Positions 5,914 through 43,097 of a stretch of DNA of 64,000 nucleotides are shown here, piece by piece. Where the stretch lies: the sequence record JX128258; one strand, written 5' to 3'. A program made the translations under genes and the position numbers. The notes under the pieces were generated by a model, which ran no database searches, was not told the DNA's origin, and saw nothing but the letters and a program-made list of their open reading frames with translations. The stretch comes from Escherichia phage ECML-117. Each line of letters opens with the position of its first letter. Within the stretch, counting starts at the first letter, position 1.

Positions 5914-6324
5914 CTATTCGCTCTTATGGGCATCACCAAAGCCATCCGCAATCTGGCTGATCAATGATTCAATGGACACAGTTTTACCAATTGATCGAGC
6001 GGTAATAGCAAGCATATTATCAATCAAACCATGATTGGATGCATATGGTCCAGGTTTTGAATCATCTTCAGGACAGCCAAAAAGCTGGTCGCGCAAACTT
6101 TCGAGAGAACGCTCAATATTTTCCAGCTTCTCTTCTAAATCAGATTGGCGACGTAAAACCCATGTTAAGTCTCGGTTGCCGACTTCCAACCCATCAGAAT
6201 CGCAAGCTGGAACGTCAATTTTGATGCTGCCACCAAAGGCCATTCCGCTGCCTTTAGTATATGTGTTGTGAATAGAATCATTCTTATTTGACATATCATT
6301 ACCTTTCATGAGGGTGATTAACAA
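5914..6324 (-). CDS. hypothetical protein (about 126-136 aa)
   Basis: ORF-track ORF; start probably at internal Met (MSNKND...). Confidence 0.5.
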   Translation of the reverse strand: MLITLMKGNDMSNKNDSIHNTYTKGSGMAFGGSIKIDVPACDSDGLEVGNRDLTWVLRRQSDLEEKLENIERSLESLRDQLFGCPEDDSKPGPYASNHGLIDNMLAITARSIGKTVSIESLISQIADGFGDAHKSE

Positions 6325-7402: not shown

Positions 7403-9760
7403 TTATTTTGCTGCTTTCAGCGCGGCTATTTCTGCCTTTAGTTCATCTATCTGATCCATCAATGCAAGAATTGCCTCGTGATGGAGTGCTGCTGCAACGC
7501 CAGAAGTGTTTACTGACTTTACGTCATCCAGAATTGACCCATCACGCAGGGTGACTGGTGATGATTTTGTTTCTGATACGGCTTCAGGGAAGTCTTTCTC
7601 TACGTCCTGCGCGATGAATCCGTATCCGATTGAGCCATTTGTCTCCAGGACCCATGTGACCCCTTTGATGTTTCTCATCTTGGAGAGCGGATTACTGATG
7701 CGCTCAATGTTGCTTTTAATTCTTTCGTCAGATGTGCTTCGCCATTCCTGGCATCTTGCTATGCCGTCAGCACCAAATAGATAAGAGGCACTGCTGCCAA
7801 TGCCATTCAAAATGTTAAGTTGCGCACGGTCCAATGCTGTTGTGCCACTTCTGACTCCGCCAAGCATCCAATTCCCGTCATACCAGTCGCCGCCAACGGA
7901 GTTTATATAGCCTCCTTCTGGCACATTCGCGTAGTTGATCATCCTGATGGCATTTCTTTCTGAAGCTGCCACCCCGACTGAATTCAACGGTTGTGCAACG
8001 ACATCCTTGGGCCTTACGTATGCGTCAATGTGTAATGCGCCGTCAGGCCTTAGTGTGCCAATTTGAGTCTCTGCGCTTGGGAAGTACAAAGTCCCAGCTT
8101 GGTTGAATGACCATTCTTGCACCCCATTAGATATCACCGCACCTTGTTCAGATGTTAATCCATCAATTTTTCCGTATGCCTGCAAGAATGCTTGATACGC
8201 AACGTTCGTGCCAATCTTATATTCAGATTTTACACTACCGCCTCTGACAAGCGTTCCGGCTGCAGGTTTTACTGCGTCGCCGTTAATCACACTCCAAGAA
8301 GTATTCGCGGCAACAAATCCACCCGATGCACGAATCACCCAAACGCCAACAAAGTTGCGACCCATGATTTCGTCAGTTGCCGCTCCATAAATCGGGCTTG
8401 ATCTGGATGCATCAATATTTATTGTATTGAGACGCCCCTCCACTGCCCCGCTTCCAACAGGTATGGTGTCGCCGCCGCCTTGGGGGTACAAATCGTTGTT
8501 TGTGTAAAAAGCACCTCGGACGGCTGTGCCAAAGATTTGCGCATAAGTGCCTGCCGATACACCAGCAGCTGAGCCTGTGATGTTTGGTGCAGCAGATTCA
8601 AATATTTGACCGTTCGCAGTGGAGTTGCCGCCATCACCGCGCCCGTAAAGCGCCCGTACAGAGCCTGTCTGGACACCGTTAAGGTCTGGGACACGGAATG
8701 TCGTTGTGCCGTTACCTGAAGAATATTTTGCACGTTTGAACTTATCCGCAAGCCAGTCGGCATCTGCGATGGGTGAAAGCATCTGCGCATACGCCCAAAG
8801 TTCAGGCCAGTCAGCACGGTTTAGCAATTGCCCGTCTGCAACGACTTCGTATGGCTGAATATATGATCTACTATTGCGAAGATGGAAATCGCCAACACCA
8901 TAGTTCATGACACCGTTCATACTTGGGCCAACGGTGCCTGTGTTTACTAAGTTTTCAACCCAACGCTTAGTCGCGGCATCATAATCATTTACAGGGTCGC
9001 CAGCGAGCGGCGTTGATCCTTGTGGACGGATGTTTAGCCACGCCTGAGCATTATCTGCAGAGCCTGTGCCGCCCATTGAAGTTGGAACGATGCTCTGATC
9101 AGCAACAGGGCCGAATCCGAAAGCAGTCTTCATTCCTTGAATGGTGGTCTGCCCAGTTCCGCCATTTGCAATTGGAATCGTGCTTTGCGTACTATACATT
9201 TGCACCCAATCCGACCAGGATGATGAGCCAGCATTGTATAGCCTTTGGTATATGGCGTTGATCCAATAAGGCGTATATCTTTGGACGCAGCTTTCTCCTG
9301 CGACGCCAGTATTGTAAACTTCAAGAATACCAGCTTGTGAGACTGGATAGTTCAGCGCCGATGATGCACCAGCATTTGCTGATTGATGATATTGACCAAA
9401 CCATGAACCAGTCAAGGCATTGAGATTTATTCCGTTAGGAATCTCTCCAAAGTTTCGGACAGTACCCGTCAAAGTTGCGGCAGTGGTTCGAATAGAAAGC
9501 ATGTCGCCAGCCGCCCATGCACGCGCTGCAGTCCCTTCTTGTGCACGCTGCACGGTCAGGACGTTTCCAACAACGGCTGTTACTGTGACGATTTCGAATT
9601 GGAGGCCTGTTGCAGCGTCGACGATTGTCGCCACTACACGCTCGTTTGCGCCCAAGGTCGGAAAGCCCGACCCTGAGCGAATTGTGATTGTGGTGTCTGA
9701 AGTCGTCGTTGGTTGAGCCAGCGCGACCTCAAAGTTGTTTTTGAATATTAGCCTTGGCAT
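7403..9760 (-). CDS. tail fibre/tailspike protein with C-terminal intramolecular chaperone (peptidase S74-like) domain
   Basis: 785 aa; fibre-type motifs (IPIANGGTGQTT; collar-like FRVPDLNGV); C-terminus STSDERIKSNIERIS...GVTWV matches the SDxRxK auto-cleaving chaperone signature. Confidence 0.75.
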   Translation of the reverse strand: MPRLIFKNNFEVALAQPTTTSDTTITIRSGSGFPTLGANERVVATIVDAATGLQFEIVTVTAVVGNVLTVQRAQEGTAARAWAAGDMLSIRTTAATLTGTVRNFGEIPNGINLNALTGSWFGQYHQSANAGASSALNYPVSQAGILEVYNTGVAGESCVQRYTPYWINAIYQRLYNAGSSSWSDWVQMYSTQSTIPIANGGTGQTTIQGMKTAFGFGPVADQSIVPTSMGGTGSADNAQAWLNIRPQGSTPLAGDPVNDYDAATKRWVENLVNTGTVGPSMNGVMNYGVGDFHLRNSRSYIQPYEVVADGQLLNRADWPELWAYAQMLSPIADADWLADKFKRAKYSSGNGTTTFRVPDLNGVQTGSVRALYGRGDGGNSTANGQIFESAAPNITGSAAGVSAGTYAQIFGTAVRGAFYTNNDLYPQGGGDTIPVGSGAVEGRLNTINIDASRSSPIYGAATDEIMGRNFVGVWVIRASGGFVAANTSWSVINGDAVKPAAGTLVRGGSVKSEYKIGTNVAYQAFLQAYGKIDGLTSEQGAVISNGVQEWSFNQAGTLYFPSAETQIGTLRPDGALHIDAYVRPKDVVAQPLNSVGVAASERNAIRMINYANVPEGGYINSVGGDWYDGNWMLGGVRSGTTALDRAQLNILNGIGSSASYLFGADGIARCQEWRSTSDERIKSNIERISNPLSKMRNIKGVTWVLETNGSIGYGFIAQDVEKDFPEAVSETKSSPVTLRDGSILDDVKSVNTSGVAAALHHEAILALMDQIDELKAEIAALKAAK

Positions 9761-9798: not shown

Positions 9799-10140
9799 TT
9801 AATTTCTTTTGAGAGGAATATGACGGTGGCTGCCATTATCTGGTTTAATAATGAGCATAAAAACGATTAGAAAGATGATGGCTGATATACTTAATTCAAT
9901 CAGCGCGGCCTGAGATATGGATTGATCTTCGTGATACTGCTTTTGCATTTCTGCTTTCTTCTGAGCGCAAACTTCAGGCGATATATAATCACCTTTTGAG
10001 TTGCCATAATAAATCTCGCCATTCTCAGAAATAAGTCTGCCGCAAATATCCGTATCGGCCTTTGCGCTTGACATCATAATAACAGTGCCGATGATAGCAG
10101 CAATTGTCCAGATTAGCAGTTGTGATAAAGTATTGTTCAT
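9799..10140 (-). CDS. small membrane/periplasmic protein (113 aa)
   Basis: Start at internal ATG with AGAGG RBS; N-terminal signal/TM, two Cys in the central domain, C-terminal TM. Confidence 0.5.
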   Translation of the reverse strand: MNNTLSQLLIWTIAAIIGTVIMMSSAKADTDICGRLISENGEIYYGNSKGDYISPEVCAQKKAEMQKQYHEDQSISQAALIELSISAIIFLIVFMLIIKPDNGSHRHIPLKRN

Positions 10141-10336
10141 GATAACCTCTTTAAATTCCCTTCCCATATCGGGAAGGGCGAATGTTATTTTACGCGAAAG
10201 AATAGGCGCGTGCCACACAGCGAGTCCCAACGGCCCTCACCATCCCATATCGACCCAACACCAGCGGTGATTGGGCCAGCAGAATTGGCGGCATTGGCCC
10301 AGGCGAGACGTTTCAACTTCCAACTGCACCAACGAT

Positions 10337-10570: not shown

Positions 10571-10781
10571 TTTCTTTCCACTCCACAAATGTGCTGCCAC
10601 TTGTTTCTCTATTTAGCAGGTATCTGCCGCGCATTCCATGAAGGCTGAATTCAACCGTCGATGGATTAGATTTTGAAAGCCACATCGCTTGACCGTCGAA
10701 TGGTCCGCCAACGCATGTGTATTTGGCTTTTGGCTCACTCCTTTTGGGCCGTTTTGCCCGCTCTTTGATTGATAGTCTCAT
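10560..10781 (-). CDS. hypothetical protein (73 aa)
   Basis: ORF-track ORF in a tightly packed leftward operon. Confidence 0.4.
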   Translation of the reverse strand: MRLSIKERAKRPKRSEPKAKYTCVGGPFDGQAMWLSKSNPSTVEFSLHGMRGRYLLNRETSGSTFVEWKENGK

Positions 10782-10996
10782 CAGTCTTCACCTTGAGATT
10801 CAAGACAAGTAAGAACAAGCCATGTCATCGGAAGAATCAAAACCAGAGAAATAAGGGACCAGATGGACCAGCACAAGATGACAGACTTGAATGTGTGAAC
10901 GTCGCCAAACGCAGCAGTGAAACAAAATCCCATCACGAAAGCAAGCGCGGTGGAGTGGTTATCAATGGCTTTGATGGCACGGTCGATGAGTTTCAT
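10781..10996 (-). CDS. small membrane protein (71 aa), holin-like candidate
   Basis: Two predicted hydrophobic helices and a charged C-terminus. Confidence 0.4.
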   Translation of the reverse strand: MKLIDRAIKAIDNHSTALAFVMGFCFTAAFGDVHTFKSVILCWSIWSLISLVLILPMTWLVLTCLESQGED

Positions 10997-39343: not shown

Positions 39344-39988
39344 ATGATTAATGCAAACGTAATATCTAAAGGGACCGGATGCAGCATGGATGTTGCAGAG
39401 AAATGGGTGGACCCTTTCAAGCAGGCTTGTGAGCACTACGGAATCAAAAGCAAGAATGCCATCGCGGCATTCCTTGCAAATGTAGGAGTAGAGACAGGCA
39501 GCTTGAAGACATTTGTGGAAAATCTCAATTACTCCGCTCAAGGTCTTGCCAATACATGGCCTAGTCGTTACAGCGTCAACGGTCGCTCTGGAAGCGCCCC
39601 GAACTCATTGGCCCTGTCTATTGCCCGTAAACCTGTGGAAATCGCCAATAATACATATGCAAACCGCATGGGCAACGGTTCAGTAGCATCTGGCGACGGT
39701 TGGAAGTACCGTGGCCGTGGTGCCATTCAGCTGACTGGTAAGGCGAACTATGCGGAATATACGCGCCAATCAGGTTATGATGCATTGAACAATCCTGATA
39801 TTCTGACTGAACCAAAATACATCGCTGACAGCGCGGCATGGTTCTTTAAGAATAGCGGCTGTATTCCTCTTGCGGATGCAGGAAATTTTGATTCAACCGT
39901 TAAGCGGATTAACGGGGCCGCGCCGAACGCAGCAAACCACGGTGAGTTGCGAAGAAAGCGTTACAAAGATGCACTAGCAGTTATGTAA
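39344..39988 (+). CDS. endolysin, glycoside hydrolase family 19-like
   Basis: AAFLANVGVETGSL and YRGRGAIQLTGKANY match GH19 lysozyme/chitinase catalytic-region signatures. Confidence 0.75.
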   Translation: MINANVISKGTGCSMDVAEKWVDPFKQACEHYGIKSKNAIAAFLANVGVETGSLKTFVENLNYSAQGLANTWPSRYSVNGRSGSAPNSLALSIARKPVEIANNTYANRMGNGSVASGDGWKYRGRGAIQLTGKANYAEYTRQSGYDALNNPDILTEPKYIADSAAWFFKNSGCIPLADAGNFDSTVKRINGAAPNAANHGELRRKRYKDALAVM

Positions 39989-40020
39989 GAAAAAGGCCCA
40001 TATGGGCCTTTGTTTATTTT
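39988..40020. terminator. bidirectional rho-independent terminator
   Basis: AGGCCCATATGGGCCT palindrome flanked by A-run upstream and TTTGTTTATTTT downstream, between convergent genes. Confidence 0.65.
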
Positions 40021-40244
40021 ACGGCTTCAACTTGGACGGGCGGAGCGGAACTTGTATCAATGTCTGGTAAGTCGAAATAATACCCCGCCATACCAATTGC
40101 ACCCACAATCGCGGCCCGTGCCACCTTGTTGCTAATTGACTCCCCAATAAGCTTTACCAACAGGGACAAGATTTGAGACGTCAAAGCCTTTTTCAGCCTT
40201 TTGTTTTCTTCCAAATCTTTCTGCATAACTACCACCCATGTCAA
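40014..40244 (-). CDS. small membrane protein (76 aa)
   Basis: One hydrophobic segment (AAIVGAIGMAGYYF); low-GC codon usage. Confidence 0.4.
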   Translation of the reverse strand: MTWVVVMQKDLEENKRLKKALTSQILSLLVKLIGESISNKVARAAIVGAIGMAGYYFDLPDIDTSSAPPVQVEAVK

Positions 40245-40783
40245 CGCACTTCCTGTGTCTTAACATTACCTGAAGCATCTCTCAAGGGCAGTGGATAGTA
40301 GGCCATTTGGTAGTCTGATACGCCTTCAATGTGATAAAACACGATTACGTCTTTGCTGTTGATGAGCATGTTAACGACATCTGATTTATCTTCTGGAGTG
40401 AGTATTAGTGCGCCGCCTGTCCTGCTGTCTACTGCAACAGGGTATGTCTTGTCGACAAGGCCGCTGTCCAATGTATTATACCTGACAACGATTTCAGGGG
40501 CATCAACTTTTGCCATTGACATTCCGAACACAAACGACACGACTTGTCGACCGCGATCATTCATTACGCACATCTTTTCTTTGTCAAATCTTTCTTTTAT
40601 TACGTCGTATTTGTTCCAGCAGAACTCAAAGGATTGCCCATTGTTGAAATATCTCGTCAAAACTTTCGCAATTCCATTCGGCGGAGTAAACATATTTTCA
40701 GCCGATGCAGTCTTGGTGAAGAATATAACTGTCAGCATGGCCATGATGATGATCAAAACAATCTTTAATTTGTTAGCTTTCAT
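40241..40783 (-). CDS. secreted/periplasmic protein (180 aa)
   Basis: N-terminal signal peptide (KLKIVLIIIMAMLTVIFFTKTASA); AT-rich codon usage distinct from neighbours. Confidence 0.5.
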   Translation of the reverse strand: MKANKLKIVLIIIMAMLTVIFFTKTASAENMFTPPNGIAKVLTRYFNNGQSFEFCWNKYDVIKERFDKEKMCVMNDRGRQVVSFVFGMSMAKVDAPEIVVRYNTLDSGLVDKTYPVAVDSRTGGALILTPEDKSDVVNMLINSKDVIVFYHIEGVSDYQMAYYPLPLRDASGNVKTQEVR

Positions 40784-41932: not shown

Positions 41933-42525
41933 TATTCGCGACCCTCATTCATTACTTGTTCCATTGCGTAGGCATAAGCCTGATCAGTCGATTTGATGAA
42001 CGTGCCGTTGTACATCACCCCTTTACGGTCCTTGATGTCTTCATAGGCGGCTTGAGCGCAATCAGAAAGTCGAAGTCCATAATCATGCGCTACGCCGGAA
42101 AGATAATCCACAGCGGCCATGATGGTGACATCAATATCCATGCTCTGATTTTTAGCAATGGCGTCGCCAAGTCGTCCGAGCGTCTTTGCCAAGCGAAGGA
42201 TAAAGGAATGAGGGTGAGCGCCTTTGTCAGCGCAACCGCCGCCGTTAATGTCTTCGATTTTTGCGCCATTTTGCGCGGCAAGAATAGTTAACACAACAAG
42301 GCAATCGCCGATGTCGTCCTTGATGGCGGCTTGTAAATCACAGATGGCCTGCTCTGTATATCCGATTTCAGGGTCAAAGAACACAAGGTCATGTAATTGA
42401 TCAACGTGGTCGGTCAACTCCCCAAACTCGCTAATAAGCTTCGGGTATTGGTCTTTAAGGCCGCAACCTTTGATGATGTTACGGTCAGAAGCCCACTGGC
42501 GAATGTTTGCATAAATCTGGTTCAT
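41932..42525 (-). CDS. MazG-like nucleotide pyrophosphohydrolase
   Basis: 197 aa all-alpha with EFGELTDH and acidic metal-binding motifs. Confidence 0.5.
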   Translation of the reverse strand: MNQIYANIRQWASDRNIIKGCGLKDQYPKLISEFGELTDHVDQLHDLVFFDPEIGYTEQAICDLQAAIKDDIGDCLVVLTILAAQNGAKIEDINGGGCADKGAHPHSFILRLAKTLGRLGDAIAKNQSMDIDVTIMAAVDYLSGVAHDYGLRLSDCAQAAYEDIKDRKGVMYNGTFIKSTDQAYAYAMEQVMNEGRE

Positions 42526-43040
42526 TTATTTTCCTTTGATGCGTTGAATTGGTCGATTTTAATTTTAGCCTGATTATAAGTATCAATCAAGCTATTAACT
42601 TTCTCTTTTAATCGGTTCGTTTCTGCGGCGAACTGAACAAGAAATCGGACATCCTCTTCTGATAGTCCACAGTTTCCTTCTGGGATAGAGAGGCGTCCAG
42701 TGGTCGCAGAGTCGGGCACACTCCTGAGTAATTCACGGGAGCAGCTGAGTTGCTCGCGCAGCTTGATATTCCCAGACTTGTAACGAGCAATAGTGTCATC
42801 AGCAACCAGTTGCGCTTCCTGGCGACCCTTCTCATATGCCGATGCCGATTCAACCTGTAAAGATGCAATTTGCTCTTCGAGTGCATTTATCTTGTCCTTA
42901 CGCTCATTAAGCGATGTCAGATATTGATTATCCTTGGCCAGTGATGCGTTGGTTTGCTGAAGGTCTTCAACGTATGATCCAGCGGCGAACGCGCCAACAA
43001 GGGCCAGAATTTTCAGAAGCGGCACAATTCTTTCTATCAT
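42522..43040 (-). CDS. Rz-like inner-membrane spanin
   Basis: 172 aa; N-terminal TM (IVPLLKILALVGAFAAGSY) followed by coiled-coil-like periplasmic domain; embedded lipoprotein ORF in another frame. Confidence 0.55.
   Translation of the reverse strand: MIERIVPLLKILALVGAFAAGSYVEDLQQTNASLAKDNQYLTSLNERKDKINALEEQIASLQVESASAYEKGRQEAQLVADDTIARYKSGNIKLREQLSCSRELLRSVPDSATTGRLSIPEGNCGLSEEDVRFLVQFAAETNRLKEKVNSLIDTYNQAKIKIDQFNASKENK
42608..42835 (-). CDS. Rz1-like outer-membrane lipoprotein spanin (embedded)
   Basis: Entirely inside 42522..43040 in a different frame; signal MRRVARKRNWLLMTLLLVTSLGISS-C with lipobox, Pro-containing mature part with a second Cys. Confidence 0.5.
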   Translation of the reverse strand: MRRVARKRNWLLMTLLLVTSLGISSCASNSAAPVNYSGVCPTLRPLDASLSQKETVDYQKRMSDFLFSSPQKRTD

Positions 43041-43097
43041 GATGCACCAGATAAATAAAAGGCCGCCAATCGGCAGCCTTGTTGATTTGATTGTCGA

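Follow-up and report, generated by a model that had tools for sequence, protein, structure and literature searches.

Escherichia phage ECML-117 poses the question of whether its lysis genes are scattered, with a spanin pair lying among genes for replication. In the window analysed here, the whole 64,000-nucleotide stretch of DNA from sequence record JX128258, an earlier note had read a 172-residue product and a second reading frame inside its gene as an embedded Rz/Rz1-type spanin pair, placed well away from the endolysin. Over a 5.6-kb stretch around the pair, ECML-117 is 96–97% identical at the DNA level to CWP003, vB_EcoM_WFH, RCIP0319, Ro157lw and Mansfield, phages of Escherichia and Shigella in the genus Wifcevirus. 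Wifcevirus phages are myophages of about 68 kb and distant kin of the PB1-like phages of Pseudomonas, Pbunavirus (PMC11990801; PMC6753283), and Mansfield and ECML-117 have a nucleotide similarity of 90.9% (PMC6753283). We conclude that the ECML-117 pair is very probably an embedded two-component spanin, the last-acting part of the phage lysis machinery.

Architecture and family of the gene pair

The reading frame for the 172-residue product is exactly that described in the earlier note, on the minus strand (Table 1). Kyte-Doolittle analysis with a 19-residue window gave a hydropathy maximum of 1.8 at residues 5–23 and no second hydrophobic segment, in agreement with the proposed N-terminal transmembrane helix. 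An AlphaFold2 model was built with six sequences as input and a query lacking Met1 (residue numbers are given +1). It consists of a helix at residues 5–106, an unstructured linker at 107–127 and a second helix at 128–171, with a mean pLDDT of 79. In a crude heptad test, the a and d positions of helix 2 were hydrophobic in a fraction of 0.75–0.88 (shuffle P = 0.017), whereas the pattern in helix 1 was no better than in shuffled sequences. The predicted helix–linker–helix organisation agrees with the periplasmic domain postulated in the earlier note, and a heptad pattern is clear only in the distal helix. The most conserved stretch of the protein, FAAETNRL, also lies in this helix.

The second reading frame is fully contained within the first, in the +1 frame, which is the embedded arrangement of two-component spanins as classified by Summer et al. 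2007 and Kongari et al. 2018. Its lipoprotein signal was judged by a match to a PROSITE PS51257-type pattern. The lipobox LLVTSLGISS-C, with Ala at position +2, matched this pattern, which contains the LGISS-C motif given in the earlier note; Ala rather than Asp at +2 fits sorting to the outer membrane. The mature protein has 50 residues, among them four Pro (8%) and one further Cys. It is Pro-containing, as had been noted, though not Pro-rich. The i-spanin has two invariant cysteines, Cys100 and Cys124, and the mature o-spanin has one, Cys15; these conserved residues are predicted to be available for intermolecular disulfides.

Table 1. Positions of the gene pair, its sequence features and its proposed functional partner in the ECML-117 window
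Feature	Position	Strand	Description
i-spanin (Rz-like) gene	42522..43040	-	172 aa; ORF list; PHROG 1327 match
i-spanin N-terminal transmembrane segment, about residues 5-24	42969..43028	-	Kyte-Doolittle; within a continuous predicted helix
i-spanin distal periplasmic helix, residues 128-171, heptad periodicity	42528..42659	-	AlphaFold2 and heptad test
Embedded o-spanin ORF, GenBank form, first ATG	42608..42886	-	92 aa; +1 frame
Alternative shorter o-spanin, second ATG (MRRVARKRN...)	42608..42835	-	75 aa; signal peptide of normal length
Lipobox I-S-S-C	42758..42769	-	Read from the sequence; Cys codon 42758..42760
AAGGA Shine-Dalgarno-like motif	42895..42899	-	8 nt before the first o-spanin ATG
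Terminator-like hairpin and T-run	43059..43080	-	Ends 18 nt before the i-spanin ATG
GH19-type endolysin, functional partner	39344..39988	+	PF00182 Glyco_hydro_19, E=1e-7; phrog_181, E=3.6e-70

Profile searches related the larger protein to known spanins. It matched PHROG 1327 ('Rz-like spanin') with E=8.6e-27, residues 6–160 aligning with positions 9–156 of the 158 in the profile, and the o-spanin ORF gave a weak match to phrog_4306 (E=7e-4). No meaningful match to either product was obtained in Pfam or NCBIfam. The i-spanin did not match PF03245 (Phage_lysis, the lambda Rz family) at E<=0.1, and a provisional profile comparison with lambda Rz, made with an approximate lambda sequence, gave an hhalign probability of 0.6%. 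By its sequence, the protein forms a family of its own outside the lambda Rz Pfam family, yet the gene pair has the architecture of an embedded two-component spanin. The observations that count against a spanin are the missing PF03245 and NCBIfam matches, the negative comparison with lambda Rz, the 8% Pro content, the lack of demonstrable heptads in helix 1, and the absence of an adjacent holin or endolysin.

Homologous sequences were found by tblastn with the i-spanin in Yersinia phage P840 (E=1e-13, 29% identity) and as ORF63 of Yersinia phage PY54 (E=3e-13, 29% identity), both Rz-like spanins, and as gp065 of Pantoea phage LIET2 (E=6e-12, 46% identity over the C-terminal half). Burkholderia phage Mica, where an i-spanin and an o-spanin are annotated, was also matched. 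The PY54 protein matches Pfam DUF2514 (E=3.7e-8) and that of LIET2 comes near PF03245, whereas the ECML-117 protein matches neither; its links to PF03245 are transitive and sub-threshold only, through LIET2 (E=1.6e-4) and PY54 (E=6.6e-3). Both PY54 and LIET2 encode embedded +1 lipoproteins homologous to that of ECML-117, for example ...LAISGC...GICPFLPPVDSSLMQPETADFQTQMSGFLF, with conserved cysteines and the common motif G.CP..PP(L/V)D..L..PET.D(Y/F)Q..MS.FLF. ECML-117 and PY54 were placed in separate singleton families in the 2018 catalogue (PMC6139136); despite this separate listing they are detectably homologous in both genes at the sequence level.

The earlier note had suggested a comparison with the lysis cassettes of related phages. 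The homologous pair of PY54 comes directly after a holin and a glycoside-hydrolase endolysin, in a canonical holin–endolysin–spanin cassette, a placement that the ECML-117 pair does not share. The assignment to the embedded Rz/Rz1 type is upheld because of the PHROG 1327 match, the predicted topology, the conservation of the embedded frame described below and the PY54 cassette.

The resemblance to lambda Rz/Rz1 is one of organisation. In both systems the i-spanin is anchored at its N-terminus and has two helices in the periplasm with a linker between them, and the o-spanin is a lipoprotein whose gene lies in the +1 frame inside that of the i-spanin, covering in each about 0.3–0.4 to 0.83 of the i-spanin length. 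Each system also has a pair of periplasmic Cys in its i-spanin and a single Cys in its mature o-spanin. Lambda Rz1 has 25% Pro (10 in 40 residues, PMC6139136) against 8% in the mature ECML-117 protein. Unlike Rz/Rz1, the ECML-117 pair is not adjacent to a holin or endolysin, and no sequence similarity between the two systems was detectable.

A unimolecular spanin of the T1 gp11 or PB1 type was also considered and rejected: the i-spanin is anchored at its N-terminus and carries no lipobox, and the lipoprotein has no C-terminal hydrophobic segment. The PB1 group has been placed among the unimolecular spanins (PMC6139136). The PB1-type protein of Pbunavirus, the sister genus, consists of one chain, with an AWAC lipobox and a membrane anchor at its C-terminus, whereas ECML-117 has two proteins; the two systems presumably do the same job of disrupting the outer membrane.

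Conservation of the embedded frame

In a search of 5.8 billion proteins we found four divergent relatives (L004–L007), 53–65% identical to the ECML-117 i-spanin over the aligned length, all on metagenomic contigs with the same gene order as ECML-117. The +1 frame was open in all four, and in each the encoded protein opens with basic residues, followed by a hydrophobic core and a lipobox (AISGC, AISSC or ATSSC), and has a mature sequence with the motif SGVCPTLxPL(D/E)xSLSxxET(V/A)DYQxxMSxxLF. The o-spanins of these relatives are 57–63% identical to that of ECML-117, so that the embedded protein is conserved to about the same extent as the i-spanin. Conservation of the second frame among homologues, on which the earlier note had made its reading depend, was thus found in L004–L007 and likewise in PY54 and LIET2. 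The lipobox and mature sequence were kept in seven homologues, with i-spanin identity down to 29%, and all seven passed the lipobox pattern with a residue other than Asp at +2.

Codon variation among the i-spanin genes also differs where the two frames overlap. At identical i-spanin residues, codons differed in 18–35% of cases inside the overlap versus 38–66% outside it. Synonymous change was lower inside the overlap in every one of 10 pairwise comparisons, eight of them with Fisher p<0.05, and third-codon-position variability was 0.28 inside versus 0.50–0.60 outside. This drop at third positions is the signature expected of dual coding.

Could the 172-residue protein be the only functional product, with an accidental +1 ORF that the composition of the i-spanin tolerates and an outer-membrane partner, if there is one, encoded elsewhere? 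When synonymous codons were resampled according to phage codon usage, the +1 frame remained stop-free over the span of the o-spanin in 8–34% of trials per sequence. An open +1 frame is therefore weak evidence alone, and we dropped its length as an argument, the per-sequence resampling being not significant. The low score of the embedded ORF against its PHROG family would also suit an accidental frame. Chance, however, would not be expected to preserve the signal peptide, lipobox and mature motif together in homologues as distant as those described above, to suppress synonymous change specifically within the overlap, or to keep the o-spanin Cys invariant. We regard the conservation of the lipobox and mature sequence, together with the synonymous suppression, as decisive for a real embedded frame, and an accidental one as extremely unlikely.

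Genomic context and proposed role

The endolysin gene closes the rightward structural block, and the spanin pair lies in the leftward block for replication and nucleotide metabolism rather than in a lysis cassette. The distance from the end of the endolysin gene to the spanin stop is 2534 bp, with the two on opposite strands, in accordance with the separation of about 2.5 kb given in the earlier note. Its placement of the pair between MazG-like and replication genes was also accurate. The spanin stop and the MazG-like start share four bases (ATGA), and a DNA ligase gene comes next; upstream, on the same strand, are genes for Pam3 gp34-like and gp33-like proteins, an SNF2 helicase and Pol III alpha. 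The position of the spanin genes is the same in all four divergent relatives. In L004 and L005 a peptidase-type endolysin (phrog_90) takes the place of the GH19 enzyme, and the slot of the spanin pair is unchanged. Judged by gene order, the dispersal of lysis functions suspected from the ECML-117 sequence is real and conserved. Such a layout has precedent, because T4-like phages do not have their lysis genes in a cluster either (PMC6139136).

A terminator-like hairpin with a T-run precedes the i-spanin gene. It has nine base pairs, six of them G-C, and a calculated folding energy of -15.9 kcal/mol. Each of the five relatives keeps the hairpin; in L004 and L007 both arms of the stem carry changes. 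In Mansfield it is annotated as a terminator. Expression of the spanin, MazG-like and ligase genes probably depends on read-through of the hairpin or on a promoter that escaped detection.

No recognisable holin flanks the endolysin, as the earlier note had also found. One of its two holin candidates, ORF 40014..40244, adjoins the endolysin; this ORF has no segment at the hydropathy cut-off and matched only phrog_5165, a family of unknown function. None of the small ORFs beside the endolysin matched an informative family. The other, ORF 10781..10996, and ORF 9799..10230 are membrane ORFs specific to Wifcevirus. They are hypothetical in every annotated record, have Wifcevirus hypothetical proteins as their sole homologues and matched no PHROG family, and a Pfam search with ORF 10781..10996 gave nothing above threshold. 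A holin is annotated neither in the first 50 kb of the Bas101 record nor in the Wifcevirus records examined.

By analogy with lambda Rz/Rz1, the pair may work as follows. The single N-terminal helix of the i-spanin would be anchored in the inner membrane, with the two long helices and flexible linker of the model reaching into the periplasm. Cleavage of the o-spanin signal peptide ahead of the lipobox Cys would leave a lipoprotein seated in the inner leaflet of the outer membrane. The two proteins would bind one another through their C-terminal parts, giving complexes that span the periplasm through the mesh of the cell wall and are restrained by it. Intermolecular disulfides, which have been described for Rz/Rz1 (PMC6139136), may form through the invariant cysteines (i-spanin Cys100 and Cys124, mature o-spanin Cys15) and give homodimers. 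Removal of the wall by the GH19 endolysin would then free the complexes, and the outer membrane would be fused or broken to let the progeny out.

The genes around the pair are of kinds usually expressed before late genes, and such timing would be unusual for a lysis gene. The complex could instead span the envelope for a non-lysis function, or have an extra early one, such as superinfection exclusion or envelope remodelling during replication, and this would explain where the genes lie. The pair is indeed co-oriented with the MazG-like gene, which it overlaps stop to start, is followed by the ligase gene and lies downstream of the helicase and polymerase genes; its position is moreover kept where the type of endolysin has been swapped. 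Set against this are the place of the homologous pair in the canonical PY54 cassette and the unclustered lysis genes known in T4-like phages. All features of the ECML-117 pair match the definition of a spanin, and nothing in the sequence hints at another activity. We consider a separate early role very unlikely and prefer a lysis function as a two-component spanin; expression of spanins at an early stage is expected to do no harm while the cell wall is intact.

A more tentative proposal, which on balance we doubt, combines lysis with early expression. Transcripts reading through the hairpin would express the pair together with early or middle replication genes, the complexes would be installed across the envelope long before the endolysin is made, and throughout the PB1-like lineage the locus would serve as a conserved slot for envelope or lysis functions. 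The notion of such a slot arises because Pbunavirus has at this position an unrelated membrane protein of coiled-coil type whose holin-like signal is faint. In the Pbunavirus phage datas, the syntenic slot contains this 201-residue protein (gp45) and not a spanin pair. Its N-terminus is rich in Gly and Ala, its middle part is coiled-coil-like, and its C-terminal part has two hydrophobic segments. We found no homologue of gp45 within the 64-kb ECML-117 window and no PB1-type AWAC lipobox in the datas locus. We do not designate gp45 a holin, its sole family signal being a sub-threshold match to GTA_holin_3TM (E=0.018). If spanins were pre-loaded in this way, they could contribute to the very short time from adsorption to progeny release, reported as 3–5 min for two Wifcevirus isolates (as cited in PMC11990801).

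Existing annotation and the start of the o-spanin

The spanin pair has been recorded before. CPT_Mansfield_057 and 058 are annotated as i-spanin and o-spanin in the Mansfield record (MK903282); the ECML-117 i-spanin is 100% identical to the Mansfield protein QEG09882.1, and the o-spanin differs in one residue. Bas101_0037 and Bas101_0038 are likewise annotated as an Rz-like spanin and an o-spanin, and the same is true of Bas98–100. Mansfield and Bas98–101 have the same +1 architecture as ECML-117, in the same slot between the Pam3 gp34-like and MazG-like genes and with matching coordinates relative to their neighbours, and nothing of substance differs. ECML-117 was itself listed by Kongari et al. 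2018 as having an embedded two-component system, with its i-spanin and its o-spanin each forming a singleton family (PMC6139136). The pair is thus genuine and had been correctly read from the sequence, but it was already annotated and catalogued and is hence ordinary.

Annotation is uneven across the genus: in several Wifcevirus records the pair is called 'hypothetical protein' or the embedded gene is uncalled. We found no discussion of Wifcevirus lysis genes in the literature, and the announcement of the Mansfield genome is silent on such genes. Automated annotation often misses this pair, and its importance beyond correct annotation is small; it fills part of the lysis gene set in a genus of phages that has some interest for therapy and biocontrol. 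What the present analysis adds is the conserved terminator-like hairpin upstream of the pair and a doubt about the annotated start of the o-spanin.

In GenBank the o-spanin starts at the first ATG (42886). The second ATG (42835), which gives a protein of 75 residues, may be the real start, a question of detail that leaves the function untouched. From the second ATG the signal peptide has 25 residues and the lipobox Cys becomes residue 26, matching L004–L007, whereas the first ATG would put this Cys at position 43. In PY54 and LIET2 a stop lies just upstream and only the short form is possible. The 17-codon extension between the two ATGs is poorly conserved in sequence, with a third-position variability of 0.53, as in the single-coding parts of the gene, versus 0.28 in the rest of the overlap. 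On the other side, only the first ATG has an AAGGA motif at 8-nt spacing, and AAGGA(T/C) and this ATG occur together in all five relatives, though the i-spanin residue encoded there varies (N, Y, H or D). We consider the two starts about equally likely, with even chances that the GenBank start is wrong. The second ATG lies inside an invariant motif of the i-spanin, AYEKGR, and its own conservation is uninformative either way.

A wider spanin family and the o-spanin start

In the 2018 spanin catalogue, the ECML-117/Wifcevirus spanins and those of Yersinia phage PY54 were placed in separate singleton families (Kongari et al. 2018; PMC6139136). Despite these separate entries, the i-spanins of the two groups are homologous (E=3e-13), and their embedded o-spanins have a motif in common. 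The ECML-117/Wifcevirus, PY54 and Pantoea phage LIET2 spanins constitute one wider family.

In GenBank the o-spanin is a 92-aa product, and a second conserved ATG occurs 17 codons downstream of its annotated start. Initiation at the second ATG would yield a signal peptide of normal length, and in PY54 and LIET2 the 17-codon extension is impossible. No dual-coding constraint was seen over the extension. A Shine-Dalgarno-like motif precedes only the first ATG, whereas the second is without one.

Coordinates of features in ECML-117 (window) and related loci
Feature	Location	Strand	Remark
Small membrane-protein ORF, about 113-143 aa	window 9799..10230	-	upstream of terminase gene
Small membrane-protein ORF, 71 aa	window 10781..10996	-	upstream of terminase gene
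About 70-aa protein, phrog_5165 (unknown function)	window 40014..40244	-	convergent with endolysin
180-aa protein, N-terminal signal or anchor	window 40241..40783	-	convergent with endolysin
17-codon extension between two candidate o-spanin ATGs	window 42835..42886	-	
Terminator-like hairpin with T-run	window 43059..43080	-	3' edge 18 nt before i-spanin start codon
Hairpin equivalents in relatives	L004 about 5960-5985; also L005, L006, L007		
Peptidase-type endolysin, phrog_90, about 150 aa	L004 (metagenomic) 9065..9520	-	
Peptidase-type endolysin, phrog_90, about 150 aa	L005 (metagenomic) 9078..9530	-	
datas gp45, 201 aa	L003 (Pseudomonas phage datas) 4988..5593	-	syntenic with window 42522..43040
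LIET2 spanin	L009 4234..4734		
PY54 spanin	L010 2471..2992		

Spanin slot and endolysin in relatives

At the endolysin position, two metagenomic relatives (L004 and L005) carry a phrog_90 peptidase-type enzyme, whereas the window and the metagenomic relative L006 carry a GH19 enzyme. L004 and L005 retain the spanin pair in an unchanged slot despite the different endolysin type, so exchange of the endolysin has taken place independently of the spanins.

In Pbunavirus, the sister genus, a protein unrelated to the window spanins, datas gp45, occupies the slot flanked by the MazG-like and Pam3 gp34-like genes. Its N-terminus is rich in Gly and Ala, its middle part resembles a coiled coil, and two hydrophobic segments lie towards the C-terminus; it matched phrog_1544 (unknown function) and, below threshold, GTA_holin_3TM (E=0.018). 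The 'putative holin' label in one record, that of phiLCL12, belongs to the Pam3 gp34-like neighbour and not to the slot protein. No gp45 homologue was found in the window.

Candidate lysis genes and the upstream hairpin

No annotated holin was present among the inspected Wifcevirus records. The two small membrane-protein ORFs upstream of the terminase gene, found in Wifcevirus only and with no family match, are holin candidates. In the 71-aa product, residues 39-57 form the one hydrophobic segment that exceeds the cut-off, and a second, weaker hydrophobic stretch lies close to the N-terminus; the longer product begins with a signal-like sequence and carries a membrane segment towards its C-terminus. 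Beside the endolysin, the 180-aa protein gave no family match. The phrog_5165 gene has an apparent counterpart adjoining the endolysin in Pbunavirus (datas gp42), the likeness being judged by eye, and apparently also in the metagenomic relatives. Conserved adjacency hints that these two endolysin-adjoining genes may have a lysis-related role.

All five divergent relatives retain the terminator-like hairpin before the i-spanin gene, and both sides of its stem carry changes. This conservation implies one of two arrangements: expression of the spanin, MazG-like and ligase genes by read-through, or use of the hairpin as the 3' terminus of the message upstream.
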